DNA of 64,000 bases from positions 15,173-79,172 of the IMG/VR virus record IMGVR_UViG_3300001681_000071; one strand, written 5' to 3'. Position 1 is the stretch's first letter. Each line of letters starts with the position of its first letter. Shown piece after piece: positions 1-50,522 of this stretch. The notes under the pieces were generated by a model that ran no database searches, was not told the DNA's origin, and saw nothing but the letters and a program-made list of their open reading frames with translations. This DNA comes from a virus. Made by a program: the position numbers and the translations under genes.

Positions 1-52
1 ATTTCCGGTTCCTTGTTTATGGCAAGAAGCGCAACGGTCTTAGGAGGTAATT

Positions 53-1711
53 ATGTATAAACCAACACAGCTATTGAGAGTTAAAAAAGATAAAGACCCA
101 AACCTAGCTTATCAAACTAGCCGAATGAGTAATTTTAGGTTTAGTGTGAGATGTGCTTACCGTGGAAACTCACAGTTATCGGAGGCGGTTGACGGGTTTG
201 TTGATTGTATAGAGAGTGGCGAAGACTACTCTGATCCAACTAACAACCCAGATACTTATAGCCAGGAGACTCCCAGAACCCATGCAGAACAGTTTGGCAA
301 AGAACTGTTCAACCAGATGTTAGAGAACCCTGACCCGGTAGGCGATGATGACGGGGAACAATGGGCAAAAGACGCAATGGGTGTAATAAATGAACTAACT
401 TCATTCAAAGACCTGAAATACACCGTGAAGGGTGACGCTGACTTCTCAGCACTTGCGACTGCTCAACTCTTGCATGAAGGGAAAGAGTCTATAAGCGAAC
501 TGCGAAGGCAACAAAAGGAAGAAGAGAATGAAGAACAACCACCTGATCCTAACGGCCCTCCGGGTGGAGGAGGTGGCGAAGGCGATGATAGCGGAGAAGG
601 CGAAGACGCTCCAGATGGAAAAGGAAAGCCCAAAGAAGATAGCAAGCAACAAGAAGATAAGAAAGAACGCCAGAAGCAACGTGAGAAGGAAAGGGAGAGG
701 TCAAAAGATAAACTGCGCTCTAAGGTCTTTAAGAAAGTAAAGGAAATCAATGAAGACTTTGAGGATGCTATGTCCTGTATGTCTACCATCCCAGGAATGG
801 AGGACGGAGATATTCTTAACGGAGAAGATTCCGCTAAACGAATGGAGATAGCCAAAAGACTTCTTAACGACAAACGCTTCCGCGCCATTATGGACATGGC
901 GGGTCGTATGGAGATAGTTAGCTCCGGTGTTCCTTTAATGTCAAAAATGGCTAAAGAGAAAGTTGTTGGAGTGGAGACAGGAAACGATCTTCCATTCGTT
1001 CTTAATAGCGAGATAGGAAACTTAGCTGATCCAGAGACAGAGGACATATTCTACAATCGCTTCATAAGGTCAGAATTGCTTCAATATGAAATGGAAGGAG
1101 AAGACACTAAGGGGAAAGGTCCGTTGGTGGTCATGCTCGATGCTTCCAGTAGTATGCGGGGGCGTCGTAATGAATTCACTCAGGGTATGGCTGCTGCCAT
1201 ACTAAGTAGCTGCTATAAAGAAAAGCGAACAGTTATCTTCGCTGACTTCAATTACAGTGTCAAAGCTATCTATTCGTATAATGGAGATACAGGGTATTGC
1301 AACGTTGGTAATAGTAACTTTGCGAACGTTAAAACAACCGATTGTATAACGCTTATTGAAAAGCTATTATCGCGTGGTTGTAGTGGTGGTACGTCCTTTG
1401 ATTCCGCACTTGTATGGGCAATGGCTAACTCAGCTTGGGATGGCTGCGATAAAGACAGTGGCCCAGATATAATCATGCTAACTGATGGAGATTGCCATAT
1501 CTCCACAAGTACAAGTGAGAAAGCTAACGAAATAAAAGAAGAAAACGGAGTACGCTTTTGGGGAATACTTGTAGACCCAAGCCTTAGAGGTAACGATATA
1601 CCAGATGAATTCTGTAAGGTTTTCAATCACAGCGTAATAGTTGATACCAGTAATATTGAACAGGGTATTGGAGCTATAGGCGAACTGATAGGCAAAGCGA
1701 ACGATAGATAA
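53..1711 (+). CDS. VWA (von Willebrand A) domain protein, MoxR AAA-ATPase partner type
   Basis: MIDAS motif VMLDASSSM, GGTSFD and MLTDGD in the C-terminal domain; acidic Gly/Pro linker (PPDPNGPPGGGGGEG) and coiled coil; AGGAGG RBS upstream. Confidence 0.85.
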   Translation: MYKPTQLLRVKKDKDPNLAYQTSRMSNFRFSVRCAYRGNSQLSEAVDGFVDCIESGEDYSDPTNNPDTYSQETPRTHAEQFGKELFNQMLENPDPVGDDDGEQWAKDAMGVINELTSFKDLKYTVKGDADFSALATAQLLHEGKESISELRRQQKEEENEEQPPDPNGPPGGGGGEGDDSGEGEDAPDGKGKPKEDSKQQEDKKERQKQREKERERSKDKLRSKVFKKVKEINEDFEDAMSCMSTIPGMEDGDILNGEDSAKRMEIAKRLLNDKRFRAIMDMAGRMEIVSSGVPLMSKMAKEKVVGVETGNDLPFVLNSEIGNLADPETEDIFYNRFIRSELLQYEMEGEDTKGKGPLVVMLDASSSMRGRRNEFTQGMAAAILSSCYKEKRTVIFADFNYSVKAIYSYNGDTGYCNVGNSNFANVKTTDCITLIEKLLSRGCSGGTSFDSALVWAMANSAWDGCDKDSGPDIIMLTDGDCHISTSTSEKANEIKEENGVRFWGILVDPSLRGNDIPDEFCKVFNHSVIVDTSNIEQGIGAIGELIGKANDR

Positions 1712-1738
1712 CTAACCAACAAACCAGAAGGAAAACCA

Positions 1739-2377
1739 ATGCGACCAACAACAATAGATAAAACATTAGCCGAAAAGAAGGTGGGCATGTTGTGGTGTGA
1801 CCACGGCAAGCACGAATTCAGCGACTATGCGTCATTTGAAATAGACGAAAGCATCTCTCCTAACCATATTATATGCTTTGAATGTAGCAGGGTTATTGCC
1901 AATGAAGAGGTGATGCCCAAACGAACGAAAGACATAGCCCTCTCAGAAGAGCTATGGATACCTGTAGAAGAGGTGGATGAAGCCTTAGCTTTCTTTTACG
2001 AAGAAAACCCCAACCATAGCAGAGAATATGAGGAAGCTGATTGGGATAGTAGCTGCATAGAAGTAGCTATGGAACAAGACCTCGACGTATGCAATCTGGT
2101 TAGCAACGAAACCGTAATCTATTACCGAGATATGGGTAATGGCGGTGGGCTTACAGAAGATGAGATGGTGGAAAAGATAGTAGAACACTTGGAGTTCGAT
2201 ATAAAAAGACCACCACACACTGTAGATTTAGTATCTATGGAGATTGGTGCGGAGTCTGAGATAGTTTCAGCAGATAAATACGCTATCGTTACGATAACTT
2301 GTTCGCTTGATAAGGATTTGAAAGACTTCCACACTAAGTTGGTTCAAATGGTTCGCGAACGAAGGAGTCAATTGTAA
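1739..2377 (+). CDS. hypothetical protein with possible N-terminal zinc-binding motif
   Basis: 212-aa ORF, CDHGKH...CFEC; preceded by AAACCAGAAGGA leader. Confidence 0.6.
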   Translation: MRPTTIDKTLAEKKVGMLWCDHGKHEFSDYASFEIDESISPNHIICFECSRVIANEEVMPKRTKDIALSEELWIPVEEVDEALAFFYEENPNHSREYEEADWDSSCIEVAMEQDLDVCNLVSNETVIYYRDMGNGGGLTEDEMVEKIVEHLEFDIKRPPHTVDLVSMEIGAESEIVSADKYAIVTITCSLDKDLKDFHTKLVQMVRERRSQL

Positions 2378-2498
2378 TGGAAGACATTCTTTTTGAAGAC
2401 GTAGGCAGAATGGCCCTATTGATTGGCTTCATGTTCTTAATTGGATATGTTTGTCAAGAGATATACAGAAAATTCAATCCTTGGGAAGAGGAAGACCT

Positions 2499-3056
2499 AT
2501 GAACTTCGATATATTTAAGATAGCTGATGAGTATCACACGAAGCATAAGATACCACAGCACAAGACAAGACCTAAGACATGGAATTTCAACATAGATGAC
2601 CTTATAGAGTTTCACTCAGAGAAGGATGAGTATAAAGAACTGGTAAAGCATCTAAAATCCACACAGAAGAAAGATAAAGAACAAAAAACGCTAATAGCTT
2701 GCCCATCGGACAATAAGATTCATGGTCTTTTGAATGAAAGCACAGGATCATGTTTATGGATATTCGGTCCACAGTGGTATATTGAAAACGCCAATCTTGG
2801 TTATTTATTCGACGTTAAGCTCTTCACAAAGACCAAAACCGTAAAGAAGAAGAAGGCTAACGTCAAAATGGTAGCCGCTATCTTCATAGCCGGGATTAAG
2901 GGCCGCGAAGTAGCACATGTTCTTAGTTTTGAAGCCGCTAACCCAGGAAGCAGCTTGAACTCAGTCAGGAGATTTGGTGTTAGCGACACATTTAAAACAA
3001 AAAAGCGAACATGTGTTGGAACTGACGCAGCACACACCTATTGGCATAGCCTATAA
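2499..3056 (+). CDS. hypothetical protein
   Basis: ORF 2451..3056; in-frame ATG at 2499 follows GAGGAAG. Confidence 0.6.
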   Translation: MNFDIFKIADEYHTKHKIPQHKTRPKTWNFNIDDLIEFHSEKDEYKELVKHLKSTQKKDKEQKTLIACPSDNKIHGLLNESTGSCLWIFGPQWYIENANLGYLFDVKLFTKTKTVKKKKANVKMVAAIFIAGIKGREVAHVLSFEAANPGSSLNSVRRFGVSDTFKTKKRTCVGTDAAHTYWHSL

Positions 3057-3066
3057 AGGAAGTAAA

Positions 3067-3675
3067 ATGAACACAACCGAACCAGAAGTAAAAGTATTGA
3101 ACCATCCAGTAGAACCATATCTTTTCAAGGTGACAATAGACTACGGGAGCCATACCGACGATGTTAGCGGCTGGGTAGACCAGAGCCAACTTAACAACCT
3201 CATTGAATTGGGGAATATATTTATAAACAACGAAAGGTTCAAAGAAGACAAACCTAAGCCCGGAGCTATGTCTTCCCATTCATTCAATTTTGCAAACGAG
3301 ATAACCAGAGAATCTTTCTTATTGGTTCTTCCGGAGCTATCTATATTAGACTCGAAGAAGGCGAGAGAGATTATACTTAACGAAGTAGAAAACTCGTTGG
3401 TTAGAGCCGGTTGGAAAAGAAGTCACGTTAAAAGAAAAGATAATGATTATGGTCAACCAATGCGGGGATGGAAGATAGGTAAAGCATTACCGCAAAAGTG
3501 TGTGGTATTTAGGTGTAGACATAGCAAGCGCAAGCATCCACCAAAGCCACCCCATACCTTATCTTCACCAAGCATAACACAGCACTCCTGTACAGAGATA
3601 GTGGTTTCACACTTAGCGTGGCCTTACCTTATGGAAGCTATGAAAGAATTATCCAAACGTGTGCTCTCGCTATGA
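3067..3675 (+). CDS. hypothetical protein
   Basis: ORF 2974..3675; in-frame ATG at 3067 after AAGGA. Confidence 0.6.
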   Translation: MNTTEPEVKVLNHPVEPYLFKVTIDYGSHTDDVSGWVDQSQLNNLIELGNIFINNERFKEDKPKPGAMSSHSFNFANEITRESFLLVLPELSILDSKKAREIILNEVENSLVRAGWKRSHVKRKDNDYGQPMRGWKIGKALPQKCVVFRCRHSKRKHPPKPPHTLSSPSITQHSCTEIVVSHLAWPYLMEAMKELSKRVLSL

Positions 3676-4022
3676 GCGTTTATGCCACTAAGGATGGTTT
3701 TATTTTGACCGTGACCAAGGGTGATGTTGATTATGGCTTGCGTATAGAGGACTCAAACGGTGTGACTCTCTATTTTTCGTCTGTTGCTTTTTCTTCTGAG
3801 GAATATGGCAGTAAACCAGCGGAACGGTACGAAGATTACGATGAGGCCGATATGGCTTATTTGGATGGGGATAAAGATGCTTTTATTGAGTGGGATGATG
3901 AGGATTGGGAACAAGTATTAGAAGACGAGGCAGATGAACTTCTTAATAGATTAGCCGGTATAGACGGTGGCGTTATTGAGAGAACGGACAACCCTATAAG
4001 GACAGTTATTTCAAGATTATAA
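3672..4022 (+). CDS. acidic hypothetical protein
   Basis: ATGA overlap with upstream stop; very Asp/Glu-rich C-terminal half. Confidence 0.6.
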   Translation: MSVYATKDGFILTVTKGDVDYGLRIEDSNGVTLYFSSVAFSSEEYGSKPAERYEDYDEADMAYLDGDKDAFIEWDDEDWEQVLEDEADELLNRLAGIDGGVIERTDNPIRTVISRL

Positions 4023-4032
4023 GGAAGCAACC

Positions 4033-4431
4033 ATGATAGAAAGAACCGAAACCAGAATTACTAACCACAACCCTAAGTTTGGCCTTGGTCAAGTTGTAGT
4101 TACATGTGGAATAGGTGTGTTGATAGAAGCAGATGATGATTTCAAGGAGCAAATTAATATATCTATTGGCAAACACCATCGCGGAGAATGGGGAACTTTG
4201 ACCAATGAGGATAGAAATCAAAATGAAAAGCATTTAAGAAGCGGGGAACGCTTAATGTCAATCTATTATCTTGCTTATGGATCACCAATTCCCGACCCCT
4301 TCGGAACGGGGTTATTCCGAACTGATAATAAAATAAAGATATACGTTATCACAGAACGTGTAACTCCTAATGAAGCAAAAGGTATTGCGGAACGTCCTTG
4401 TACTACGGTATTGCTACCAACCGAATACTAA
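4033..4431 (+). CDS. conserved small protein of plasmids/ICEs/phages, function unknown
   Basis: FGLGQVVVT..HHRGEWG..EDRNQNE..GERLMSIY..IYVITE..TTVLLPTEY matches the pattern of a widespread mobile-element family. Confidence 0.7.
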   Translation: MIERTETRITNHNPKFGLGQVVVTCGIGVLIEADDDFKEQINISIGKHHRGEWGTLTNEDRNQNEKHLRSGERLMSIYYLAYGSPIPDPFGTGLFRTDNKIKIYVITERVTPNEAKGIAERPCTTVLLPTEY

Positions 4432-4685
4432 TCATGGACACAAATTACAATAGCCGGAGAAATACTCATGGTGTCACCGTCATGTTTATGGGTTTGGTGC
4501 CTATAGATTTAAGTGGTGATGGTATTATGAGAGACTGCTCCCTAAACGGGATGCGCTACCGTCGCCAAGGCCGACAAATAGAAAGCCACTTGGTAGAATG
4601 AAGGATTACGAAAGAACTAACAAAGCTATGGGTATAAGATTTGTTATTCAAGTTCATAGGAACCAATACAATAACTAATAGAGTT

Positions 4686-8475: not shown

Positions 8476-9348
8476 ATGGAAAGGACGATAAGAATTGGCT
8501 CATTGTTTTCTGGTATTGGGGGGATTGAGCTTGGGTTAGAGTATGGTATTCAAAACTCTATAACTATTTGGCAAGTCGAGTCGAACGAATTTTGTCGCCA
8601 GGTGCTAAAGCGGCACTGGCCCAAGTCAAAAATCTATAACGATGTAAAGAAGGTAGGAAAACATAACTTAGAGCCTGTAGACATTATTTGTGGTGGCTTT
8701 CCGTGCCAAGATATTTCAATAGCCGGGAAAAGAGAGGGGATAAATGACGGTGCCAAATCGAGTCTTTGGTGGGAAATGTGGCGGGTTGTTAGCGAGCTAC
8801 GACCCCGAATCGTCGTCATTGAGAATGTCTCAGCTATCACTTTTTCCGATGGCGGGGGATGGGAGTTACTACATTCCCTTGCCCAAATCGGGTACTCTTG
8901 CGAATGGATTGATTTACGAGCAAGTGATCCCCCGTTCAACGCGCCACACGAACGAGAACGCATATTCTTTGTTGCCTACACCGACACCAGCACTGAATAT
9001 GACCTCTCCTTCAATGATGAAACACCAAGGGCATCAGAACTTTCGTGCGCTATTGCCGACACCAACAACGAACGATTGCAAAAACACACCGGGCGGTGTA
9101 GCCCAATGGGAAAGGCACAGCAGCTTAAATATAGAAGCCGCGAAGATGGCGGGACGAACAAAGACGACAATTGGAAAGGATTTCCGATTGAACCCCCGCT
9201 TTGTCGAAGAGATGATGGGATTTCCGATAGGGTGGACAGACTTAGAGCGTTAGGGAACTCAGTTGTTCCGGCATGTAGTAGGTGGATTGGTAAGCGAATA
9301 CAAGAGTCAGGTCTTTTAAGGAGAAGAGATGCATCAACACTTCCATAA
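8476..9348 (+). CDS. DNA cytosine-C5 methyltransferase, large polypeptide lacking motif IX
   Basis: motif I LFSGIGG, IV GGFPCQD, VI IENV, VIII RERIF, X LGNSVV. Confidence 0.92.
   Translation: MERTIRIGSLFSGIGGIELGLEYGIQNSITIWQVESNEFCRQVLKRHWPKSKIYNDVKKVGKHNLEPVDIICGGFPCQDISIAGKREGINDGAKSSLWWEMWRVVSELRPRIVVIENVSAITFSDGGGWELLHSLAQIGYSCEWIDLRASDPPFNAPHERERIFFVAYTDTSTEYDLSFNDETPRASELSCAIADTNNERLQKHTGRCSPMGKAQQLKYRSREDGGTNKDDNWKGFPIEPPLCRRDDGISDRVDRLRALGNSVVPACSRWIGKRIQESGLLRRRDASTLP
8744..9253 (+). CDS. internal +1-frame polypeptide carrying C5-MTase motif IX (putative beta subunit)
   Basis: 169-aa ORF nested in the MTase; GAGGGG SD just upstream of ATG 8744; ends RLNPRFVEEMMGFPIGWTDL. Confidence 0.75.
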   Translation: MTVPNRVFGGKCGGLLASYDPESSSLRMSQLSLFPMAGDGSYYIPLPKSGTLANGLIYEQVIPRSTRHTNENAYSLLPTPTPALNMTSPSMMKHQGHQNFRALLPTPTTNDCKNTPGGVAQWERHSSLNIEAAKMAGRTKTTIGKDFRLNPRFVEEMMGFPIGWTDLER

Positions 9349-9877
9349 AAATTTAAACGTTAAGAATATATTGTCACGATATAAACCATCGACAATTGTA
9401 GAACTTGGTGGGCTTAATGGAGCCAATACTTTACAGTTACTCACGATGGGCAAAGTCATCACTATAAGTGATAATAAGATGCCCGATAAGCTCTCTCCTT
9501 TCGTTAAGAAAGGCGAACTAAAATGGATACAAGCACTATCGTTTAACGCTCTCAAATCATTTGCTGATGGCTCTATTGAATTCGCTAGTGTTGACACTGA
9601 CCACAATTACACCACTCTAAAGTTAGAACTTATAGAATTAAAAAGAGCAATGAAGAAAGATGGTGTTGTTGTTTTACATGATGTTGAAACCTTTAAGAAT
9701 AGAAACAACCAACATTATACTCTTGAATATGCCAACGGAGAGCCATATAACTTTGCTCTAATGACACAAGGCCATAGCTACACAGCGGCTTTGACAGAAG
9801 AAATACAAGAGGGCGAATGGAAACTGTTGGATTGGTCAGAAGCGAGCAACGGAGCAGCGGCTATTATCAAAACTTAG
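9329..9877 (+). CDS. class I SAM-dependent methyltransferase (Methyltransf_24-like)
   Basis: IVELGGLNG, IEFASVDTDHNY, GVVVLHD. Confidence 0.75.
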   Translation: MHQHFHKNLNVKNILSRYKPSTIVELGGLNGANTLQLLTMGKVITISDNKMPDKLSPFVKKGELKWIQALSFNALKSFADGSIEFASVDTDHNYTTLKLELIELKRAMKKDGVVVLHDVETFKNRNNQHYTLEYANGEPYNFALMTQGHSYTAALTEEIQEGEWKLLDWSEASNGAAAIIKT

Positions 9878-9878
9878 G

Positions 9879-10349
9879 TTACCTCTCCATCGCAGAGAAG
9901 CGAGGTGTTCTTCTTTTTTCATCGAAGATCAATAGACAAGAAGGAGCCGGTGCTGAATTTGGTGCCTTTTGAAATTTGATACGTCCCCTCACAAGCCTAA
10001 TTTCAGCCGCCCTCATAGCCCAATCGTGCCACCACTTGGTGTCTGTACGGGCAAATGTCAAGCAAACCACCGTACAGCCTTTGGTACTCTCCCAATACGA
10101 TTTCTCAATCCATTTGCCCACTTCTCTCCCGTAAGGAGGGTTGAGCCACACTGCCTCTCCGCGAGAAATTTTATGCCATGGCAAACTCAAAGCATTCCGG
10201 GTCAGGTATAGAACACATTTATGGTTCTCAGCAGAGGCAGCAGCGTCCAATACAAAATTGAATTCATCATTGATCTTATTAAAGAAAGACCACGGAGTTC
10301 CCCAATCTTGTTTTTTGCTACTGAACAGTTTATCCTCGGACCAACTCAT
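9879..10349 (-). CDS. phage Dam-type DNA N6-adenine methyltransferase
   Basis: DWGTP, LDAAAS, WLNPPYG, ARTDTKWWH, GRIKF. Confidence 0.9.
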   Translation of the reverse strand: MSWSEDKLFSSKKQDWGTPWSFFNKINDEFNFVLDAAASAENHKCVLYLTRNALSLPWHKISRGEAVWLNPPYGREVGKWIEKSYWESTKGCTVVCLTFARTDTKWWHDWAMRAAEIRLVRGRIKFQKAPNSAPAPSCLLIFDEKRRTPRFSAMER

Positions 10350-10678: not shown

Positions 10679-11629
10679 TTAGAAGAAGTTGTCTGCGTAG
10701 TCGGCTATTATTCCAAAATCTCTGAATAGTTTGCACCTATCAAGGTCTATGCCAACAATCCTTCCATTTAATTCTGACAAGTATTCTCTGCCAAATACAG
10801 CCTGTCTTGCCCTGTAAAGCACACCAAAGCTTTCACCTGTCTGAGACACCACCTTTTGTATCCTCATGTGCATACGGTCTATGTCTCGACCCACGTAGTA
10901 TCTTCCTTTCTTCAATCCATGGAAGTCACACAGCAAACTCTCTGTTATTGCCATATCTACGCCTAATCTTGCGTATTCTGGGTACTCAACTACACTCATT
11001 GATAGCTGTTTATGTATCCATCTGGCATATTCTTCCAAAACAACGCTTGGCGATGAGTTTGCCATACCAGTAATGTCGCATACTCCCCTCCTTGGGCCAG
11101 AGGCTTCGTCTATTTCCATGGTGGATGGTATTACATCGAAAACGTTAACCTTATGAAACATATCGGCAGATGTATAAGCAGCCCATCTGCCATTACCCCA
11201 CACAGTTCTCAGATTGTTAAGAAGTGTTTTCCAATTGTCTTCTTTGGAATTGGTAAAGTCCTTCGTAAGATATTCTTTAGCACCACCGTTCTTAGATAAT
11301 TCAACCAAGCTATTTATATGTTTCGTAACACTGGTTGTTATAAGATTTCTGCGCTGTTTGCCTATATGAAGCTTATCGTAGTCCTCTGGTATACGTGTTG
11401 GATAAGGGTAGCGGAGGAACGTATAATAGGCAGAAGCCGGATTATAGAAGGCCATATAAAGAAATGATAACCACACTGCCTGTTCTGGATCCAGCCCTTT
11501 CTGTACCTCTATTAAAAGACCATGGAACGGATCATAGTCCTTTGTTTTCAACTGCTTTCTCGCAAAGTCGTTAAAGTAAAACCACGTATCCGACTTTTTT
11601 ACGCTGTCTGGATTTATGGTAGTTATCAT
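10679..11629 (-). CDS. amino acid:DNA transferase / aGPT-PPlase (clade 2-like), base hypermodification
   Basis: DYDP, WLSFLYMAFYN, QRR, HhH-like WGNGRWAAY..AD, SGPRRG, ESLLCDF, GRYYVGRDID. Confidence 0.8.
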   Translation of the reverse strand: MITTINPDSVKKSDTWFYFNDFARKQLKTKDYDPFHGLLIEVQKGLDPEQAVWLSFLYMAFYNPASAYYTFLRYPYPTRIPEDYDKLHIGKQRRNLITTSVTKHINSLVELSKNGGAKEYLTKDFTNSKEDNWKTLLNNLRTVWGNGRWAAYTSADMFHKVNVFDVIPSTMEIDEASGPRRGVCDITGMANSSPSVVLEEYARWIHKQLSMSVVEYPEYARLGVDMAITESLLCDFHGLKKGRYYVGRDIDRMHMRIQKVVSQTGESFGVLYRARQAVFGREYLSELNGRIVGIDLDRCKLFRDFGIIADYADNFF

Positions 11630-12531
11630 TCTTTTCCCATTGGTTCTCTACATATTGGAAGAGTTAGACAAGCAAAACCACCCCCTAATTTCCTTATCTC
11701 GTTCATTTTGCTTTTATAAACTACTATTCCATTGTCTTCTAATATAGACTCGGTTTCAGGACAGTCATCTGGCATCAAAACAGAGTTTGGCGAAAGTGTA
11801 ATCCAATTCATGGATAGTTTCTCGTTGACCTCCTTGCTCGGTTTTAGATGTATAATCTCACCCGACCACTTAAAATTCTCTGTATCACTTCTGGTAAATA
11901 ATCGTGTCCCAACAATGCGGTTTCCACCAAGTAAATGTTGTGGAATAGATGGGCCGAACTTATCAACATACTGCACTATACATCGTGTCTCATGGGACCA
12001 GAATTCAATTGCCTTTTTCTGGCTTCTGCCACCACAAGCAACACTAAAGGAGCCATCATTCATTATTAAGATGTCAGAAGCCTCAACAAAACCAATCATC
12101 AGTTTCATTGGAGAAGAATAATTACACCGAAACCACTTCATAATATAGTCAGCTTCACTACTCCTATGGGCTAACCCAGAGCGTGTAACATAAATCACAT
12201 CACCAACTATTTTCGCCATATCGCGAACAAACATTGAGTCAATGCTTTTACCACTACAAGCCTCATTTATATCCAAAACCTCTACTCCCAGACCCCGTAG
12301 CTTGGAAGTTAAAGAATCGAATTCCGTCAGTAATGTGTCATGGTTTGGAAGCTTAATCCAAGATGGCGGAGGCAAAGATGGCGGAGGCAAAGATGTACGT
12401 GAAGATAGAGTCATACGTGTATGCGAAAACACTTCTGCATGAAATTTCAGATTGGTTGGGCGATTGACCAACACCGTAAACAGGTTCCCTGTTTCGTTTG
12501 TAATAAATGCACGCTTTTTATGTCCAATCAT
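11626..12531 (-). CDS. amidinotransferase / arginine deiminase / DDAH (pentein) family enzyme
   Basis: VLVNRP, MFVRD, EASD (EGGD-like), HLL, C-terminal GGGFACLT with catalytic Cys. Confidence 0.8.
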   Translation of the reverse strand: MIGHKKRAFITNETGNLFTVLVNRPTNLKFHAEVFSHTRMTLSSRTSLPPPSLPPPSWIKLPNHDTLLTEFDSLTSKLRGLGVEVLDINEACSGKSIDSMFVRDMAKIVGDVIYVTRSGLAHRSSEADYIMKWFRCNYSSPMKLMIGFVEASDILIMNDGSFSVACGGRSQKKAIEFWSHETRCIVQYVDKFGPSIPQHLLGGNRIVGTRLFTRSDTENFKWSGEIIHLKPSKEVNEKLSMNWITLSPNSVLMPDDCPETESILEDNGIVVYKSKMNEIRKLGGGFACLTLPICREPMGKE

Positions 12532-13615
12532 TTGAAGTCATCGGATATAAAAGCTGTTTCATAATCGTTCGTATTCTTTCTTTTTTTGCGAAAAGTAGTA
12601 TTTCCTCTTTTCTTTTGTGCCATCTATACTTCTTAGGGGAACTTGTTGCCATAGTGAGTTTAAGATCAATCGGATGCGGGGGCTCTATACCAATGTCCCT
12701 GCAAATCGTATGAATCATTCTTTGGGGATGGGCTACAACTTCTTCAAACTTATAAGATAATGATATATTATATTTAAGTGCCATCGAATGTGCGTTTGCC
12801 CACTGGTTCAAACAAACCTCGATCAGCCTTTTGTTTTTGTCGTCATACCAGCCTGGGTAAAGGTCAAAACACCACCAATTATAATAATTGTAATTCTTAA
12901 TATTAAGCCCTCCGACCTTGTAAGCAAAAAAGGCCCTTTTGTGCAACCATCCATCCATAAGTCCATTAACAGTAGCCGCAAAAGAACGTTTGAGATGTAT
13001 ATATTGAATCTCGCTAACGGGGAATAGTTCTTTAAATAAGCTTGGCCTATACACATTTTGCGGTGTTTTAAAGATGATGACCTTGCCACTTAAAGACAAT
13101 GGATAAGAACATGCTGTTGGCATGACAAATGGCGGTTCTTCCAGTATCACCTTGTGTTTTTGTGCTTCGCGGTCTTCCAATTTTCCATCGTACCAACTTT
13201 GGTCTACATCTTCAAATCTTGCCGTATCCTTGCCAGGCCATTGTAGTATCTTTCTTATGTGTATAGAATTTATAAGATGAGACTCTACACTAATATGCTT
13301 GTGACAAAGTTCTCCGCGCACAAGCGTTTTCAATTCTAATATATTATCAATTTTATCTAGTCTGTTCCCGCACAAGTAATCCTCATTCACAGCATTGCCA
13401 GTTAGCTTTAAATAAGGCTCTATCTCGCCTTGTAGGCTCACTACACTTGGGCTTCTGCTCAATACATCGAATAAACAACTACTCCCACTCCTTGAGGCCG
13501 TAAGAATTACAACTACTTTCTTTGGTTCGCCTATTGGGGAGTTGAGCAGTTTTCGGATATTGTTTTTTGCTGCCCCTATTTGATGATCATTCGGTTTCAA
13601 CAATAGTTCTGGCAT
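12518..13615 (-). CDS. PAPS-dependent sulfotransferase family protein
   Basis: 5'-PSB loop ILTASRSGSSCL, FKTP, 3'-PB IHLKRSFAATVNG, YKFEEVV..P. Confidence 0.8.
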   Translation of the reverse strand: MPELLLKPNDHQIGAAKNNIRKLLNSPIGEPKKVVVILTASRSGSSCLFDVLSRSPSVVSLQGEIEPYLKLTGNAVNEDYLCGNRLDKIDNILELKTLVRGELCHKHISVESHLINSIHIRKILQWPGKDTARFEDVDQSWYDGKLEDREAQKHKVILEEPPFVMPTACSYPLSLSGKVIIFKTPQNVYRPSLFKELFPVSEIQYIHLKRSFAATVNGLMDGWLHKRAFFAYKVGGLNIKNYNYYNWWCFDLYPGWYDDKNKRLIEVCLNQWANAHSMALKYNISLSYKFEEVVAHPQRMIHTICRDIGIEPPHPIDLKLTMATSSPKKYRWHKRKEEILLFAKKERIRTIMKQLLYPMTSNDWT

Positions 13616-14141
13616 TTGTATTGATCCAATCTATTACTATCTCTGAAAGGGCTTTGGGGCTTTGCTTGCCATCTAAAATCAAACGGTCTCTATTCTTAAA
13701 CATGTTAAAAAAGTTCTTTGCCTTTGTCTCCCTTCCCTTTAACCAATTTGCATTTTGATTGGACCCACGTTCTTTCCTACGTTCCACAAGAACATCATTT
13801 GGCAAATCTATCAATATACAAAAGCACCCGTCAGCGAATTCATTAACATATTCAAGACAGTATTTTGTAGAGAACCTATCGCCATCAAATATGGTGACAG
13901 AGTATTTTTCATTAGCCAGAAGAAAGCTACTCCAATACTGCAAAGACTCTTTGAAGGCATTGTATGGAACGGTATCGCCACCATCGAACGTCTTCCCCAA
14001 GTAATGACCAGACAGTATGATGTTGTTTGTAAGGGTCCACTTTGGCTTAACTACAAACTCTGTATCGAATGGGTCAATATAGTTTCTTAGCATGGTTGTT
14101 TTTCCACAACCAGGAGAACCAACAACCCAAACTCCTATCAC
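13587..14141 (-). CDS. P-loop nucleotide kinase, putative hydroxymethylpyrimidine-DNA kinase
   Basis: Walker A GSPGCGKTT, GHY..TFDGGD, FDGDRF, lid ERRKERGSNQ..WLKGRETK; in the same operon as the aGPT-PPlase. Confidence 0.75.
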   Translation of the reverse strand: MIGVWVVGSPGCGKTTMLRNYIDPFDTEFVVKPKWTLTNNIILSGHYLGKTFDGGDTVPYNAFKESLQYWSSFLLANEKYSVTIFDGDRFSTKYCLEYVNEFADGCFCILIDLPNDVLVERRKERGSNQNANWLKGRETKAKNFFNMFKNRDRLILDGKQSPKALSEIVIDWINTNARTIVETE

Positions 14142-15067
14142 AATGACTCCAGCTTTCTGGTGTTGTATTTCTTGGCCCTTTTAAGCTCCTCTTCTGGGGA
14201 TAAGCAGCCAAGGATACGGTTTCTAAGATACATAACTACGCTAACTCGATACCAATCCTTATTCTTTTTTCCTTCGGCTTTTGGAGGAATATTGCCGTGC
14301 CATACAGCAGGGTTAAAAAGTATAAAATCGCCATGCCGCATATTTACAGCCAAGCTAAATTCTGGAAGGACCAATTCAAATCCAGAATAATCTCCGTGTC
14401 TCATGGCAAACATGCAACCAAAACCTTCTTTAAGGTCGCCACTGTCTTGATGATAAGCAGCACACACCGTATTATTGACGGAGATTGTTGAAAATGGTGT
14501 GCCAGGTACTACCCAAGCTGGATGAGCTTTGTTTGCAAATTCTGTTTGTATCTCATGGAAGTTTGGCAGCAAAGACTTATAGATCCGCGAACACTTCCGC
14601 AAGTGTTTGGCAATTTTTGCCCATTCCTCTGGGTGGTCGCGTGTATACGTTGTTGCTCTACAATATGGGAAGCGACCTCCAACGCTCTCATAAAATCCAC
14701 CTATAGAGCTGTAGACGGAGACCATTCTGCCATTTTCATCTAATGATCTCTCTGATTTAGATAATGTGCCATCCTTTTTGATTACCCGACTTTGCTTGTA
14801 TCCGGCATATGCCGCCCTTGCATCTGATGGGTATCTCATAAATTCCCTATATGGCTTTCTCACTTCTTCCAGTTCTTCGTCAGTGAAACATCCACGCCTC
14901 ATAAGTATAATGGGTATACCATTGCTGCTATATACATCACAATTGCCGTCTATTATTAGACCATAATGGTTAGGTCTTGGATGGGTAGATTTCCAAGGCT
15001 CTATCTTTTCAGCCGATACTTTCGACCTTACCACTATCTTCATTGTTTTCATTATCATCACCACCAA
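14138..15067 (-). CDS. TET/JBP-family 2-oxoglutarate-Fe(II) dioxygenase
   Basis: GTPFSTISVN, HQD (HxD), LVLPE, GDFILF, WHGN, RVSVVMY; true start probably an ATG at 15058-15043. Confidence 0.88.
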   Translation of the reverse strand: MVVMIMKTMKIVVRSKVSAEKIEPWKSTHPRPNHYGLIIDGNCDVYSSNGIPIILMRRGCFTDEELEEVRKPYREFMRYPSDARAAYAGYKQSRVIKKDGTLSKSERSLDENGRMVSVYSSIGGFYESVGGRFPYCRATTYTRDHPEEWAKIAKHLRKCSRIYKSLLPNFHEIQTEFANKAHPAWVVPGTPFSTISVNNTVCAAYHQDSGDLKEGFGCMFAMRHGDYSGFELVLPEFSLAVNMRHGDFILFNPAVWHGNIPPKAEGKKNKDWYRVSVVMYLRNRILGCLSPEEELKRAKKYNTRKLESL

Positions 15068-15791
15068 GACGCTTGTACTCTGCCATTACCGCTTCATAAA
15101 CTGTATCTGGCATATTATCCGTGTCATATGCGTATGATAACGACTTACAAGCCATCTTGAATTTTTGGCACTTCTCGTTTTCAAATATAAGCTGAATCAT
15201 TCTGGAAGTAGAAATAGTTGGATTATCTATCGTGATTACATCTTCGGCAATTGCGTCTTCATCTCCAGAATCCCAGACATTAGTAACGGTAGAATTTTCT
15301 GTTCTTCCACCAGCACCAGCATTGGCATCATTGCCACTATACTTTTCATCGGGAGGAGCAAAGAAGTCTAAGGAGTCGTCTATTCCCCCAAAGGAATTGA
15401 TCAAATCATCCATTTCACTACCAGTGAAGCCAAGCATCGTTGGATCAAAATCTGCAAGTTTGGCTAACTCTTCTAAGTGGTGTGCAAGCATAGCCTCATC
15501 CCATCCGGACAGTTCTCCAGAACGATTGAGCCTAATAGATAATTTTCTTGCTACCTCATCGGATACGTCCAAATAAACTATATTTGTTGTTTCGTATCCG
15601 AGTTCCTTTAAAACCTTTAGCCTTGCATTCCCAGCAATAACCATTTGGGTTGTTTTCTGAACAATTAACGGCTCTACCTGCCCATGATCTTCAATGCTAT
15701 CTCGTATAGCTGCATAGTTTTGTTCATTGTGTTTTCTTGGGTTTTGCGGATCATAGACAAGTAAATCAACTTCAACTTCGGCATATTCCAT
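15009..15791 (-). CDS. ParB/Srx N-terminal domain protein
   Basis: NPRKH, SIEDHGQVEPLIV, VIAGNARL, LSIRLNR..WD. Confidence 0.85.
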   Translation of the reverse strand: MEYAEVEVDLLVYDPQNPRKHNEQNYAAIRDSIEDHGQVEPLIVQKTTQMVIAGNARLKVLKELGYETTNIVYLDVSDEVARKLSIRLNRSGELSGWDEAMLAHHLEELAKLADFDPTMLGFTGSEMDDLINSFGGIDDSLDFFAPPDEKYSGNDANAGAGGRTENSTVTNVWDSGDEDAIAEDVITIDNPTISTSRMIQLIFENEKCQKFKMACKSLSYAYDTDNMPDTVYEAVMAEYKRLGGDDNENNEDSGKVESIG

Positions 15792-47117: not shown

Positions 47118-47611
47118 TATCCCCTTCCCTGACGCTTAATATGCCGTATAAGAGTCTTTTCAAATACCGAAGCTAGCTTTTGTTGTACGACAGGTTTAGT
47201 GGCCTCTCCACGAACCGGATCACGCGCAACCATTATCTTGGTGCCTTCCCAAACATACAGCCTTGATTTCGGGATCCCAGAAGTAGGCCCAACCCGACCT
47301 TCTAATGTAAGACTGTTAACGTCAAAACCAAGATACTTTAGAAAAACACCCTTTCTTTTATGAACCATGTGTGGCTCTAAATTTCCGGGTAAAGGAAAGC
47401 CTCCAGCCCACTTTGTGGCGTATGGGTGGTTAAGATACCGTAGTCGCATTTCCGATATATCTGTTCTGGAAGACGCTTCAACCGAATACTGTAGAAGCCT
47501 TTTTGTTGTAGCCCTTAGAGCAAGAACAACAGCAAGATTTACACCTCTTTTAGACTTGCGAAGCTGATCACTTAGCCCCGATACATTTATTCTCAACTCT
47601 ATCTTCGGCAT
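47117..47611 (-). CDS. putative neck/tail completion protein (HK97 gp10-like)
   Basis: basic, EGTKIMVARD motif, position. Confidence 0.6.
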   Translation of the reverse strand: MPKIELRINVSGLSDQLRKSKRGVNLAVVLALRATTKRLLQYSVEASSRTDISEMRLRYLNHPYATKWAGGFPLPGNLEPHMVHKRKGVFLKYLGFDVNSLTLEGRVGPTSGIPKSRLYVWEGTKIMVARDPVRGEATKPVVQQKLASVFEKTLIRHIKRQGRG

Positions 47612-50522
47612 CTTCTATCTCAATTGGCTTTACAAAAAACGTACCCTTCTCATCTACTTCTATTCTATCATAAGGAAAATCAGGAAGGTCTTGTTCTATC
47701 GTCGGTCTGAATTCTCCGGTATCTATGATTGATTGAAGAGGAAATACTGACTCTAACTTCTCAATAAGTTCAAAACAGACTTTATGAAACGGGTGGCCTG
47801 GACCGAGCCTTTCAAATGTATGTTTAAACATCAGATTCGACTTCCTACCAAGATGGTAAGCATATTCTTTGTATGGCAAAAAGGCTGTTCCAGCACACAT
47901 ACAGGCTCTTTCATAACAAGTTTCTGCCTTAGCCATTTGACCATCATTCACACATTGAAGACCCAAAGCAACCCAAGACCCACAATCCAAGGGATTCTTC
48001 TTCAATTCATTGAACAACATTGAATTGTATTTTCCTAACTTGTGTGCCATATCTTTTGGTTTCCGCATTAGGCCGGTATTCACAGTGATAAACGGAGCAT
48101 ATTGAACATTGGGGAAAATCCCCATATCCATTAGTCTATTGAAAGCTTTTTCATACCCCTCATGCACTGAGCCTTCTACTTTTACAAGCCCAACATCATC
48201 CAATTTTACCATTCGTATCGTTTCGCTTCTTGACTCTTTCTTGTCTCCAGCATTTGTAGGATTGGTAAATCTAAACATCCATCCCCACACATCGTTAACC
48301 TCTGCCATCCGTTTGACAGCAGCAGTGAATGGAGGTTGATCTTGTGGCACAATCTCATCAGGGTCCATTGATAGTACCCATCCAATTGTGCCTTTGTTTG
48401 TTTGCCTAAAGTGATCTATAGCTGCATTCCTACACGCGCCAAGACCTCCTTCAATGACAGCAAGCTCTTTATGTATGACCTCCACCCTGAATAACCTCAT
48501 AAGTTGAGCCAAATTCCATGATGGGCCGGTCTTATACTTTTTGCTCCATTCTTCTTCTGTAGGCCAAGAAGCATGATTATCATCTTTAGCCCACTCCATA
48601 TCTTCCTCTTCCCACTTGCCTGTCCATACAAGAGCCAACCTATCGCAGATCCCGTAAAGCTCTATAAACCATCGTCCAATATGCGGGATTATCTCATCTT
48701 CATATGCCAACATGTACGCTGCAATACCGTTCCTTGGATTGTAAACAGAAACCGGGACATTCTCTTGCCTGACGATATGACTGTAATTCCCATCCAAGCC
48801 CACAAGCTTTGGGTTTTTTTCCTTGTCTAAATCTTGGTAGAATTTAAACTTGTCGGCTCGATCAACAGAACGAACATGAGATAAATGCCTCATTCTAATG
48901 CTTGTGTCGTACCTTTTTACCTTGCTGTGTTCTGGACAGTTTCCGCAATGCAAACCTATGTCAGTGCCAGCAAATACTTTCTGAGGGAACTTCTTAATAA
49001 CCCTCCAAATCCTTGGGCCAGCCATTGCAGACGTATAGCCATTTGCAAATGGATAATCTGTTCGGATTAGATTTGTGTTCTCCCAATGATTTAGGAATGA
49101 CACATTACCGCAAGTCTTATCTGGATCTGGGTGGTGGATGGTTCTCCTAAAGGTATATTTACTAATCCTGTCTTCTGGAACCTCATCGCCATCTACCGAA
49201 AAGATATAGTCAGCGTCCATTTCATGCGCTATCTGGTACGATAAATTGCGCTCATCTCTTTCGTTAAAGTCACCGCCCCAAGGAGCGCAACGAACCTTAA
49301 ATTCAGGGTTGTTGCTTTTAGCGATTCTTAAAATCCATTCTTCCAGCAGTTTGGCCCTGGCAGTAGAGTCTTGTTCTTCTTTACAGCTATCGAAAATCGC
49401 CTTGTTCTCATCGGATAGAGAGCCATACATTGGATTGTCGTATGAGGACAATGCGTCTGCCGGATTATTCGTAAGAACAAAAGATATGCCATCCACAAGC
49501 TGAGACACACGAGTAACGCTCATCTCCAATTGTATAAGTTCGTTTATATTCTTTATAGAAACTCTATATGCAGCAATTACATTCTTTTCACTTTGAGTGT
49601 ATTCTTCCCACTTGAGCATGTACCGGATTAGATTTTTTGTGCCGTGGTATTGACCAGGAAATATCTCTTTAAGGGTTTGATGCATCATGTGACCAATGAC
49701 AGTATGGAAAGACAAGGAAGAACGCCACCCCATCTCTTGGGCTCTTAGGCATAAATCATTGTCTTCATACCCACCAACCGGAAACGAAACATCATCGAAA
49801 GGACCATAATACTGGTTTTCAACCCCTGTATTCTGGGCAAGGTCTTCAGCACAATCACGCTTCAACATAATACAAAAGCCATAAACTATATTCTGTAGGA
49901 TGGTTCTATTGCCATGCAACTCCCTCCAATCTGTAGAAAACGCCTGTATGCCCAATCGAATTATTTCAGACTTCACCCACTCGAAGTCCCTTCCAAATAA
50001 ACCACTTTCCCCATATGCCCCAGGAGACAGTGGGCCTGTAATGCCAATCTTACCGATCTCTTCTACTGGAAATGGGGCCTTTTTTGTTTCTAAGAGAGAG
50101 TATGTGTAAACTTCTTTTGTTTCCAAAGAAGAAGCCAAACTCTCCATCCAACCGGGCGTTACATGCAGGTCGTCATTCGCAATAGTGATATATTCTGGAA
50201 TACCGTAGTTCTCTTTCGCGAATTCATACCCTTTGTTTACAGCGGCACCAAAACCAATTGGTTCGTCTGACCATACATATTCAATCGTTACGTTTTCCTT
50301 GGGACTCAATAATGCTTGTGCGCCAATTAGTCCTTTAAGGGCCTCTATGTTCTTCTTTGCGTCTTCCATCTTGTGTGGATTTACACTCACTACAAATAAT
50401 GTATTCGACTCAGAATATTTATAGAAAGCCCCAAATGTTCTCATTAGAGTGCTTTCTAAGGCCAATGTTGGAATGATAACCAAGTGTTTATATTGGTCTG
50501 ACATATTTGCCCCTGGCGTCAT
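47568..50522 (-). CDS. multidomain glycosyltransferase (three GT-A/GT2-like domains plus TPR)
   Basis: GFGAAVNKG..IANDD..GGYEDNDLCLR; DYIFSVDGDE..LHCGNCP; CRNAAI..WVLSMDPDE..VHE; TPR-like SWVALG..AETCYERA. Confidence 0.8.
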   Translation of the reverse strand: MTPGANMSDQYKHLVIIPTLALESTLMRTFGAFYKYSESNTLFVVSVNPHKMEDAKKNIEALKGLIGAQALLSPKENVTIEYVWSDEPIGFGAAVNKGYEFAKENYGIPEYITIANDDLHVTPGWMESLASSLETKEVYTYSLLETKKAPFPVEEIGKIGITGPLSPGAYGESGLFGRDFEWVKSEIIRLGIQAFSTDWRELHGNRTILQNIVYGFCIMLKRDCAEDLAQNTGVENQYYGPFDDVSFPVGGYEDNDLCLRAQEMGWRSSLSFHTVIGHMMHQTLKEIFPGQYHGTKNLIRYMLKWEEYTQSEKNVIAAYRVSIKNINELIQLEMSVTRVSQLVDGISFVLTNNPADALSSYDNPMYGSLSDENKAIFDSCKEEQDSTARAKLLEEWILRIAKSNNPEFKVRCAPWGGDFNERDERNLSYQIAHEMDADYIFSVDGDEVPEDRISKYTFRRTIHHPDPDKTCGNVSFLNHWENTNLIRTDYPFANGYTSAMAGPRIWRVIKKFPQKVFAGTDIGLHCGNCPEHSKVKRYDTSIRMRHLSHVRSVDRADKFKFYQDLDKEKNPKLVGLDGNYSHIVRQENVPVSVYNPRNGIAAYMLAYEDEIIPHIGRWFIELYGICDRLALVWTGKWEEEDMEWAKDDNHASWPTEEEWSKKYKTGPSWNLAQLMRLFRVEVIHKELAVIEGGLGACRNAAIDHFRQTNKGTIGWVLSMDPDEIVPQDQPPFTAAVKRMAEVNDVWGWMFRFTNPTNAGDKKESRSETIRMVKLDDVGLVKVEGSVHEGYEKAFNRLMDMGIFPNVQYAPFITVNTGLMRKPKDMAHKLGKYNSMLFNELKKNPLDCGSWVALGLQCVNDGQMAKAETCYERACMCAGTAFLPYKEYAYHLGRKSNLMFKHTFERLGPGHPFHKVCFELIEKLESVFPLQSIIDTGEFRPTIEQDLPDFPYDRIEVDEKGTFFVKPIEIEDAEDRVENKCIGAK

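Follow-up and report, generated by a model that had tools for sequence, protein, structure and literature searches.

A sulfotransferase-fold gene coupled to a guanidino-group hydrolase in phage DNA-hypermodification loci

Thymine hypermodification and the window operon

The known thymine hypermodifications of phages consist of added amines or amino acids, and to our knowledge none of them involves sulfur-oxygen chemistry or arginine. A ParB-dependent subclass of T-dioxygenases has been described (PMC13229309), and in the pathways that combine such an enzyme with a 5-HMUDK and an AADT the base is hydroxylated, then phosphorylated and finally substituted by an amine (PMC13229309, PMC8989533). 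The operon considered here, which lies in a stretch of viral DNA of 64,000 nucleotides (the window), follows the same logic, and it contains the gene set described in PMC13229309, a 5mYOX gene together with genes for a ParB homologue, a kinase and an AADT. Genes 1, 3, 7 and 6 of the Rhodococcus phage Tonitrus (PMC11955845) are homologous to the ParB, TET/JBP dioxygenase, P-loop kinase and ADDT genes of the window. In contrast to all of these systems, the window operon carries two further genes inserted between the kinase and the ADDT gene, which encode a sulfotransferase-fold protein (ST) and a pentein-fold hydrolase. Neither of them is mentioned in the papers on the ParB-dioxygenase/5-HMUDK/AADT pathways (PMC13229309, PMC8989533, PMC11955845), and the literature search yielded no paper in which a sulfotransferase or an enzyme of the deiminase or arginase type is connected with the hypermodification of DNA. 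As Tonitrus possesses the ParB-TET-AADT-kinase core without ST and hydrolase, these two appear to be an add-on pair. The result is a compact module of six genes in the order ParB, TET-type dioxygenase, P-loop kinase, ST, ADI-fold enzyme and ADDT:

15009..15791, minus strand: ParB N-terminal-domain protein, first gene of the operon and partner of the dioxygenase (Pfam ParB_N, 32.9 bits; PHROG 620, E 2e-35)
14138..15067, minus strand: TET/JBP-type 5-methylpyrimidine dioxygenase, predicted to make a 5-hydroxymethyl base in DNA (Pfam Tet_JBP, 76.2 bits)
13587..14141, minus strand: P-loop nucleotide kinase 3, candidate 5-hydroxymethyl-base DNA kinase (Pfam Ploopntkinase3, 29.1 bits, cut-off 27)
12518..13615, minus strand: ST, 365 residues (invariant 5'-PSB loop, Glu64, Lys183 and Arg210; structural Z 15-16)
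11626..12531, minus strand: pentein-fold (arginine deiminase/DDAH/amidinotransferase-like) guanidino-modifying enzyme, 301 residues (Pfam ADI, 25.2 bits)
10679..11629, minus strand: amino acid:DNA transferase (ADDT, PF18724; ADDT/aGPT-Pplase family; Pfam ADDT, 71.4 bits)

To judge from its sequence, the operon is translationally coupled. The ParB_N and Tet_JBP genes overlap at 15009-15067, with kinase and ADDT following. The first-pass annotation of this DNA had noted overlaps of the ST gene with both neighbours, and these are indeed found: it opens with an ATG at 13615, 29 nt before the stop codon of the kinase gene (13589-13587), so that the reading frames overlap, and at the other end its stop codon (12520-12518) is reached 14 nt after the following gene has begun at 12531. 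The ADDT gene begins in an ATGA overlap with the gene before it. The neighbours named by that annotation are likewise correct, with the kinase upstream and the ADDT two genes downstream; the ADI-fold gene stands between ST and ADDT. When the operon was scanned for promoters and terminators, the hits did not outnumber those in shuffled sequence. The same gene order, from ParB to ADDT, recurs in loci L008 and L132 at 36-45% identity (44% for the dioxygenase in L008), and the ADDT is about 32% identical to actinophage aGPT-Pplase2 proteins. Among cultured relatives the four-gene core is present and the ST absent. Neither the ST nor the pentein-fold hydrolase has a homologue in 50,697 cultured-phage records, and megablast and tblastn searches of cultured phages with the operon DNA, two STs and the ADI-like and arginase-like proteins gave no match.

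Fold and relatives of the sulfotransferase

The ST reading frame is, by its sequence relatives, a real gene and not a chance ORF, since 660 cluster representatives match it at E <= 1e-3 and 54 at E <= 1e-30; the closest homologue, P0002, shares 69-74% identity. Family assignment by profile is borderline, as Pfam Sulfotransfer_3 scores 27.1 bits against a cut-off of 27.0, while PF13469 stands in the precomputed annotation of most homologues. No matching family was found in NCBIfam or PHROGs, phmmer with the single sequence found no match in the PDB, and IMG/VR yielded no relatives when it was scanned with single sequences, whether of the ST, of the ADI-like protein or of the TET protein. The IMG/VR relatives were recovered only by alignment-based scans, of which a narrower one with the ADI-like alignment returned nothing beyond known loci and one truncated contig.

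Given the borderline Pfam score, it is the structure that settles the fold, because the best matches of the AF2 model (pLDDT 82.2) are all sulfotransferases. Foldseek assigned the model to 4gbm with a probability of 1.00, and in VIA-align the best 50 entries were all sulfotransferases, with Z between 15.6 and 14.9 for TPST1/2, the CurM ST and the OLS ST. The top structural matches are TPST1/2 (PDB 3ap2, 5wri; Z 15.6 and 15.5, rmsd 3.8-3.9 A over 223-228 residues), TPST2 reaching Z 15.6 at 3.9 A over 228 residues; their sequence match to the ST is, however, non-significant (E about 0.4), and nothing in the gene neighbourhood of the ST points to a peptide as substrate. Among proteins of solved structure, those closest by sequence profile are instead the activating STs of CurM and OLS (PDB 4gbm, 4gox; E 8e-6 and 3e-7 with the ST family profile), at Z 15.3 (rmsd 3.6 A, 218 residues) and 14.9, although the identity in the structural alignments is just 16-17%. 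In CurM and OLS the acceptor is tethered to a macromolecule, which we count as a possible likeness to the window ST. The latter, in contrast, is a stand-alone protein without an ACP or thioesterase partner, and has a guanidino-hydrolase as partner; no thioesterase, ACP or PKS gene was found, so that the sulfate-eliminating partner of CurM/OLS-type STs is missing.

The PAPS-binding motifs reported by the first-pass annotation are intact. SRSGSS (41-46) is the 5'-phosphosulfate-binding loop and aligns with PRSGST of the CurM and OLS STs, FKTP (182-185) contains Lys183, which the profile alignment places on their KSP, and HLKRS (207-211) overlaps YIHLKR (205-210), the 3'-phosphate-binding strand that corresponds to YIHLVR/YIYLVR of 4gox/4gbm. 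An RSGS(T/S) loop, a K(S/T)P motif and a YIHLxR motif are thus common to all three, and the RSGS and K(S/T)P...YIHLxR segments are those aligned by the family profile. In an alignment of 19 viral and metagenomic homologues S41, R42, G44, K183, T184 and R210 are invariant, as is Glu64 of the GE motif. We take Glu64 to be the candidate catalytic glutamate from its spacing and by comparison with TPST2 and CurM; the PSB arginine, catalytic glutamate, lysine and 3'-PB arginine presumably correspond to R78, E99, K158 and R183 of TPST2, which are spaced in the same way. Fold and motifs together mark the ORF as a PAPS-dependent sulfotransferase, whose sulfo transfer itself is predicted. Indirect support for transfer from PAPS comes from the APS kinase that adjoins the bacterial homologues in 27 of 80 loci.

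The upstream P-loop kinase was considered as a possible APS kinase of the phage and rejected, as it scores with Ploopntkinase3 and its relatives with HMUDK; APS_kinase matches were found neither in the phage's own genome nor in five related viral records. The basic DNA-binding surface that the first-pass annotation had proposed to look for is not consistently evident and was dropped as an argument. The window ST has a pI of 9.2, but only a few close relatives are basic as well, and most viral homologues are acidic (pI 5.0-6.7).

Conserved pairing with a guanidino-group hydrolase

The survey covered about 180 loci from phages, metagenomes and bacteria (20 viral, 80 genomic and 80 metagenomic). 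Across them the ST gene is almost always followed by a gene for a guanidino-group hydrolase, which lies within 3.5 kb in 19 of 20 viral, 79 of 80 genomic and 73 of 80 metagenomic loci; the remaining loci are on contigs that end too soon, except for L124. This coupling, which was absent from the first-pass annotation, is the strongest clue to the function of the ST. Such strict pairing also marks ST and hydrolase out as an enzyme pair that awaits characterisation in Burkholderiales and in bacteria of candidate phyla. Two bacterial rows of the tree, L030 and L090, are wrongly picked ORFs on a very long branch and are to be disregarded.

The partner has either the deiminase (pentein) fold or an unrelated arginase fold, its activity in both cases being predicted. 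The pentein-fold enzyme encoded between ST and ADDT in the window (model pLDDT 82.6) superposes on arginine deiminase with Z 31.0 (rmsd 2.5 A, 276 residues); Z is 27-31 for ADI, ArgZ, SxtG, AGAT and DDAH and 20-21 for agmatine deiminase and PAD. Its invariant residues D104, R123, E150, R169, H199 and C288 align with D66, R85, E114, R132, H162 and C249 of PaDDAH, so that the Cys-His-Asp/Glu catalytic set and two carboxylate-binding arginines are kept. As these residues are retained and the closest enzymes are ADI, ArgZ, SxtG, AGAT and DDAH, the enzyme looks active and tuned to L-arginine. In L013 and L016 its place is taken by a protein of the arginase family, which is not homologous to it and carries the metal-binding motifs DAHxD and DxDxxDP.

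All 20 IMG/VR loci hold the ST among pyrimidine-C5 hypermodification genes, with proteins that are just 27-36% identical. This argues, in line with the first-pass annotation, that the ST is part of a base-modification pathway and not there by chance, and the gene linkage strongly suggests that it acts in DNA modification. Two phage cassette types can be distinguished. In one, the ST-hydrolase pair occurs with a kinase and a DNA transferase; here the window, L008, L010, L013, L018, L020, L132 and L184 have the ST in one operon or locus with genes for kinase and AADT. In the other, the ThyA-type (L002-L007, L009, L011, L012, L017), it occurs with thymidylate-synthase-like enzymes and two kinases. 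This six-gene cassette, which is of pre-replicative design, includes two or three thymidylate-synthase-like genes, an APH-like kinase and a dUTPase, and it shares with the window operon the same ST and ADI-fold pair, preceded by a P-loop kinase. TET, ParB and ADDT were not found in the ThyA-type phage records, which are 12-54% complete (a positive control was run).

The bacterial pairs are found behind a HemK-like gene, a relative of the HemK/PrmC-like protein methyltransferases, often beside an APS kinase, and ADDT, TET, hypermodification kinase and other DNA-modification genes are absent from 80 of 80 bacterial loci. The proximity to DNA-modification genes on which the first-pass annotation had staked its claim is therefore constant in phages, in favour of that claim, whereas in bacteria it is never found, which speaks against it. 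The bacterial loci also indicate that the ST-hydrolase pair is able to work outside DNA hypermodification, so that a protein or a metabolite in free form may be the direct substrate of the pair.

Possible roles of the pair

We think that the ST and the downstream guanidino-hydrolase could form a two-enzyme tailoring module on an otherwise standard post-replicative thymine hypermodification pathway, in which the pair modifies an arginine-derived side chain of thymine and the ST leaves a sulfo group on it; we would put the probability of this reading at roughly 40%. ParB and the TET-type dioxygenase would generate 5hmU in DNA, or alternatively 5hmC, the P-loop kinase would phosphorylate the hydroxymethyl group, and the ADDT would displace the phosphate by an arginine-type amine. 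The pentein-fold enzyme would then remove or convert the guanidino group, and the ST would transfer a sulfo group from host PAPS to the side chain, most simply by N-sulfonation of the unmasked amine, so that a sulfated, arginine-derived thymine would result. From the fold, the motifs, the operon structure and the conserved gene linkage, which are observed directly, we infer every one of these chemical steps, as well as which of ST and hydrolase acts first, which amino acid is used and that the sulfo group is retained on the DNA. Arginine-type chemistry is suggested by the near-invariable coupling of the ST to a guanidino-group hydrolase, and the acceptors favoured by the first-pass annotation, 5hmU, 5hmC or a generic amino-acid adduct, are not supported; its interpretation as a whole is upheld in part.

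The tailoring of one molecule by a sulfotransferase and an amidinohydrolase has a precedent in the biosynthesis of clethramycin and mediomycin, where the PAPS sulfotransferase Slf and the arginase-family amidinohydrolase Medi4948 act in either order on one guanidino-bearing molecule, whose guanidino group is a masked amine (PMC5704753). The likeness lies in the described chemistry and may go no further, as the substrate there is a polyketide, the reaction an O-sulfonation and the genes are unlinked. As the arginine adduct has no hydroxyl group, N-sulfonation must be assumed for the phage pair. Several observations count against the tailoring reading: the bacterial pairs occur without ADDT, TET and hypermodification kinase, the ThyA-type cassette lacks an ADDT in records that are 12-54% complete, a sulfo group adds negative charge to the DNA while the known thymine hypermodifications add amines, the phage has no APS kinase of its own, and the basic character of the ST is confined to the window protein and a few close relatives. 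We regard it as slightly less probable still that the phage DNA contains a sulfated base, with a side chain derived from arginine or ornithine at thymine C5 that bears the sulfo group as sulfamate or as sulfate ester, a base made by a conserved ST and guanidino-hydrolase module that serves two different hypermodification routes. If so, it would be the first case of a sulfated base in a genome of any kind, and the work of a new enzyme pair, of which the bacterial version (methyltransferase-ST-arginase) would make a related product. If the ST acts in the pathway, it would either introduce an anionic DNA modification of a new kind, which would affect the evasion of restriction and CRISPR, the packaging of the DNA and the chemistry of sequencing, or offer a new way to activate or build base adducts.

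The ST and the hydrolase could in principle also act before any contact with DNA, on a free arginine-type metabolite, giving a small molecule, sulfated or not, that the ADDT or an enzyme of the ThyA cassette joins to the activated base and that the HemK-like methyltransferase N-methylates in bacteria. This is the sole reading that covers all three contexts with one substrate, and it agrees with the bacterial trio, which occurs without any DNA transferase, and with the pentein enzyme, in which the residues for binding a free alpha-carboxylate are retained and whose nearest enzymes use free L-arginine. However, those tailoring enzymes of ADDT pathways that have been characterised use adducts already attached to DNA (PMC8989533), ornithine and citrulline are plentiful metabolites, which would make a dedicated hydrolase needless unless the substrate is unusual, and no candidate product can be named, so that we consider such donor synthesis unlikely.

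The first-pass annotation had also suggested sulfate as an alternative leaving group to phosphate. In that case 5hmU or 5hmC, either within DNA or as nucleotide, would be sulfated by the ST on its 5-hydroxymethyl group, and a nitrogen nucleophile would displace the sulfate, so that none of it stays on the DNA; the CurM and OLS STs likewise attach sulfate for the sake of its later elimination. A 5-sulfooxymethyl pyrimidine should, on chemical grounds, be a good electrophile, the ThyA-type cassette has an ST and no ADDT, and the nearest sequence relatives of solved structure are the two activating STs, which also share the top rank in the structural comparison, so that the suggestion keeps some plausibility. 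An equally good match is, however, given by the TPSTs, whose sulfate is permanent, and a thioesterase-like partner is absent, as are hydroxymethylpyrimidine genes from the bacterial loci. In the window, L008, L010, L013, L015, L018/L020, L021, L132 and L184, the ST stands with a hypermodification kinase that would already activate the same hydroxyl. In L014 no kinase was detected beside the ST, but with kinases in most loci the ST is unlikely to be a substitute for the hydroxymethyl kinase. Direct sulfation of 5hmU to create a leaving group is less likely than the tailoring pair, and we judge activating sulfation in general to be quite improbable.

Very improbable, finally, is a target unrelated to the DNA, be it a protein as for the TPSTs, a glycan or a metabolite of the host, with the ST just sharing an early operon with the DNA-modification genes: the TPSTs as top structural matches, the HemK/PrmC-like relative beside the bacterial homologues and a GT2 protein of the phage would fit it, but the linkage to hypermodification is kept in two unrelated phage cassette types down to 27-36% identity, the ST gene has its place between those of kinase and ADDT, where reading frames overlap, and the glycosyltransferase, which the first-pass annotation had rightly placed 34 kb away, is a weak GT2 match (47568-50522) among structural genes.

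Returning to the tailoring pathway and its first step, a C5-cytosine methylase gene is found near the operon. With this methylase nearby, 5mC is a possible substrate of the dioxygenase.

The operon and its added enzyme pair

The source IMG/VR virus record comprises 79,172 bp and is complete according to CheckV; the window covers its bases 15173-79172. The sulfotransferase-fold protein (ST, 365 residues) is encoded by the fourth gene of a densely packed minus-strand operon:

15009-15791, minus: ParB_N protein (Pfam ParB_N, 32.9 bits)
14138-15067, minus: Tet_JBP dioxygenase, TET (Pfam Tet_JBP, 76.2 bits)
13587-14141, minus: P-loop kinase3 (Pfam, 29.1 bits)
12518-13615, minus: ST (Pfam Sulfotransfer_3, 27.1 bits)
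11626-12531, minus: arginine-deiminase-fold (pentein) protein (Pfam ADI, 25.2 bits)
10679-11629, minus: amino acid:DNA transferase, ADDT or AADT (Pfam ADDT, 71.4 bits)

The first-pass annotation had described overlaps of the ST gene with both neighbours, and these are confirmed: the end of the kinase gene shares 29 nt with the ST start, and the ST end shares 14 nt with the start of the pentein gene. Three DNA or other methyltransferase genes lie just outside the operon:

8476-9348, plus: C5-cytosine methylase (141.9 bits)
9329-9877, plus: Methyltransf_24 protein
9879-10349, minus: Dam-type N6-adenine methylase

With its ParB/TET/kinase/AADT core, the window matches the ParB-dependent subclass of T-dioxygenases, which has been linked to P-loop kinases and AADTs (PMC13229309). 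Either T or 5mC may be the base that is modified. Because of the C5-cytosine methylase at 8476-9348 the dioxygenase might act on 5mC instead of T, but the ParB link favours T. Among cultured phages the nearest ADDTs are those of actinophages, at about 32% identity. Rhodococcus phage Tonitrus possesses homologues of ParB, TET, ADDT and kinase as in the window, but it lacks both ST and hydrolase, so the ST-hydrolase pair has been inserted into a core that was already known. The operon represents a known kind of system in a new form, with a realistic chance of a new type of DNA chemistry. No homologue of ST, of the pentein protein or of an arginase-like protein was found in 50,697 cultured-phage records, and a full-text literature search found no paper that ties sulfotransferases or guanidino-hydrolases to phage DNA hypermodification.

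The Tonitrus locus (L192, positions 1-4642 of this cultured actinophage) carries ParB, TET, aGPT-Pplase2, kinase and, in the tailoring position, an unannotated gene 8 of 293 aa, which matched none of the ST, pentein and arginase profiles. Elsewhere in the window, a 984-residue protein among the structural genes (47568-50522, minus) gives a weak GT2 match of 28 bits over residues 79-137.

Conserved linkage in three genomic contexts

The ST family is large, with 660 representatives at E <= 1e-3. For 20 viral, 80 genomic and 80 metagenomic loci, neighbourhoods were analyzed by scoring six-frame ORFs with HMMs made from the adjoining genes. The strongest pattern, which was absent from the first reading, is that a guanidino-group hydrolase follows ST nearly everywhere: it is found within 3.5 kb in 19/20 viral, 79/80 genomic and 73/80 metagenomic loci. 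The loci without it are contigs that end about 350 nt or less from ST or are cut upstream; the sole true exception is L124, in which about 1.5 kb downstream of ST contain no hydrolase. Among the 20 viral loci, 17 encode a hydrolase of the pentein (ADI/DDAH) fold, and in bacterial loci the hydrolase always belongs to the arginase family (67-82 bits). Two viral loci (L013:8314-9099 and L016:2064-2744) possess, after ST-ADDT, such a non-homologous arginase-family protein instead of the pentein hydrolase, with intact DAHxD and DxDxxDP motifs. As an enzyme for the same substrate group has been swapped for a non-homologous one, this is good evidence for a pathway that handles a guanidino compound.

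Type A phage loci (the window, L008/L010, L013-L016, L018-L021, L132, L160, L184) combine ST and hydrolase with ADDT and usually a hypermodification kinase, which is Ploopntkinase3, HMUDK plus HMUDK_hel, or of AAA_18 type; ParB and TET are present as well in three type A loci, one of which is the window. Type B phage loci (L002-L007, L009, L011, L012, L017 and at least 16 metagenomic contigs; for example L004:6575-12125) show the order Walker-A kinase, ST, pentein enzyme, thymidylate-synthase-like protein, APH-like kinase, thymidylate-synthase-like protein. The number of thymidylate-synthase-like genes per cassette is two or three, a dUTPase is present in some loci, and RecA, RNR and helicase genes lie next to these cassettes. 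A search with a positive control detected no ADDT in five type B records, all of which are fragments. The third context is a bacterial three-gene unit on one strand (L022-L101, for example L024:7231-10024 and L054:7232-10635), consisting of a HemK/PrmC-like methyltransferase, ST and an arginase-family protein. It occurs mostly in Oxalobacteraceae and Sphaerotilaceae, with a few candidate-phyla and archaeal MAG contigs, and an APS kinase adjoins it in 27/80 loci. An association of ST homologues with DNA-modification genes thus holds for both phage types but not for the bacteria, where no ADDT, TET or hypermodification kinase was found among the neighbours in 80 loci. In a quick maximum-likelihood tree of ST, rooted arbitrarily and with two mis-picked rows to be disregarded, the bacterial proteins group in a single clade with strong support (SH-aLRT 99), which lies within a more diverse set of branches from viruses and metagenomes.

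The two enzymes

The Pfam score of ST is at threshold (27.1 versus 27.0), and neither NCBIfam nor PHROGs provided a family. Stronger evidence comes from profile, structure and conservation. When 18 homologues are combined into a profile, it matches the ST of olefin synthase (OLS; 4gox, E 3e-7) and that of CurM (4gbm, E 8e-6), and the aligned parts take in the RSGS loop, K(S/T)P motif and YIHLxR strand. The AF2 model (pLDDT 82.2, pTM 0.85) finds only sulfotransferases among the matches listed by Foldseek and VIA-align; 4gbm is the best Foldseek match, and the VIA-align Z scores of TPST2 (15.6; rmsd 3.9 A, 228 residues), CurM ST (15.3) and OLS ST (14.9) are ties. The neighbours in the ESM Atlas are sulfotransferase clusters as well. 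The motifs quoted at first (SRSGSS, FKTP, HLKRS) are present and conserved, and viral and metagenomic homologues show no variation at S41, R42, G44, G63, E64, K183, T184, R210 and the RW pair 331-332. From motifs and model we take ST to be a working PAPS enzyme, in which Glu64, judged by its spacing, may be the catalytic base. A hint of DNA binding from its charge does not hold across homologues: the window ST and the proteins closest to it (P0002, P0003, P0050 and the L013 protein) are basic (pI 8.6-9.4), whereas the majority of the remaining viral homologues are acidic (5.0-6.7). At the position of a disordered loop in the window ST (residues 134-154), about 50 extra residues are inserted in the bacterial homologues.

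In the pentein protein, D104, R123, E126, E150, D153, R169, H199 and C288 are invariant. In a HMMER alignment, six invariant pentein residues correspond to D66, R85, E114, R132, H162 and C249 of P. aeruginosa DDAH, which make up its catalytic set and the pair of arginines that bind an alpha-carboxylate. The model (pLDDT 82.6) ranks arginine deiminase first (Z 31.0), followed by SxtG amidinotransferase (28.1), ArgZ dihydrolase (27.9), AGAT (27.2), DDAH (26.9), and agmatine deiminase and PAD (20-21). On account of these residues and this ranking, the substrate probably retains an L-arginine-like amino-acid end; the reaction may be that of a deiminase, dihydrolase, DDAH-type hydrolase or amidinotransferase. 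An insertion of about 25 residues (~29-52) is unique to the window protein and missing from 13/13 aligned homologues; the model has low confidence there, and a repeated SLPPPS motif closes the insertion.

Possible chemistry

It had been proposed that ST sulfates a hydroxymethyl base or its amino-acid adduct, with sulfate as a possible leaving group. The position in the operon and the linkage kept across phage loci support this proposal only in part and in a refined form: we consider a participation of ST in base modification, of whatever kind, probable. In the reading that we prefer, with a probability of roughly 0.4, ADDT would place an arginine-type amine on phosphorylated 5hmU, the hydrolase would then remove or convert the guanidino group, and ST would sulfonate the side chain, the sulfate staying on the DNA. 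That sulfate finally resides on DNA, by any route, has somewhat less than even odds. As a chemical precedent for the pair, clethramycin/mediomycin tailoring comes closest; there, sulfotransfer and amidinohydrolysis proceed in either order (PMC5704753).

The bacterial trio is best accounted for if ST and hydrolase instead produce a free small-molecule donor, which we regard as unlikely. Still less likely is that ST sulfates the 5-hydroxymethyl group to create a leaving group: its resemblance to CurM and OLS and the type B cassette without ADDT would fit, but a kinase is present almost throughout, which speaks against this role. A protein or glycan as the substrate of ST is improbable, given its place in the operon and the linkage across phage loci. 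The PAPS required by ST must be supplied by the host.
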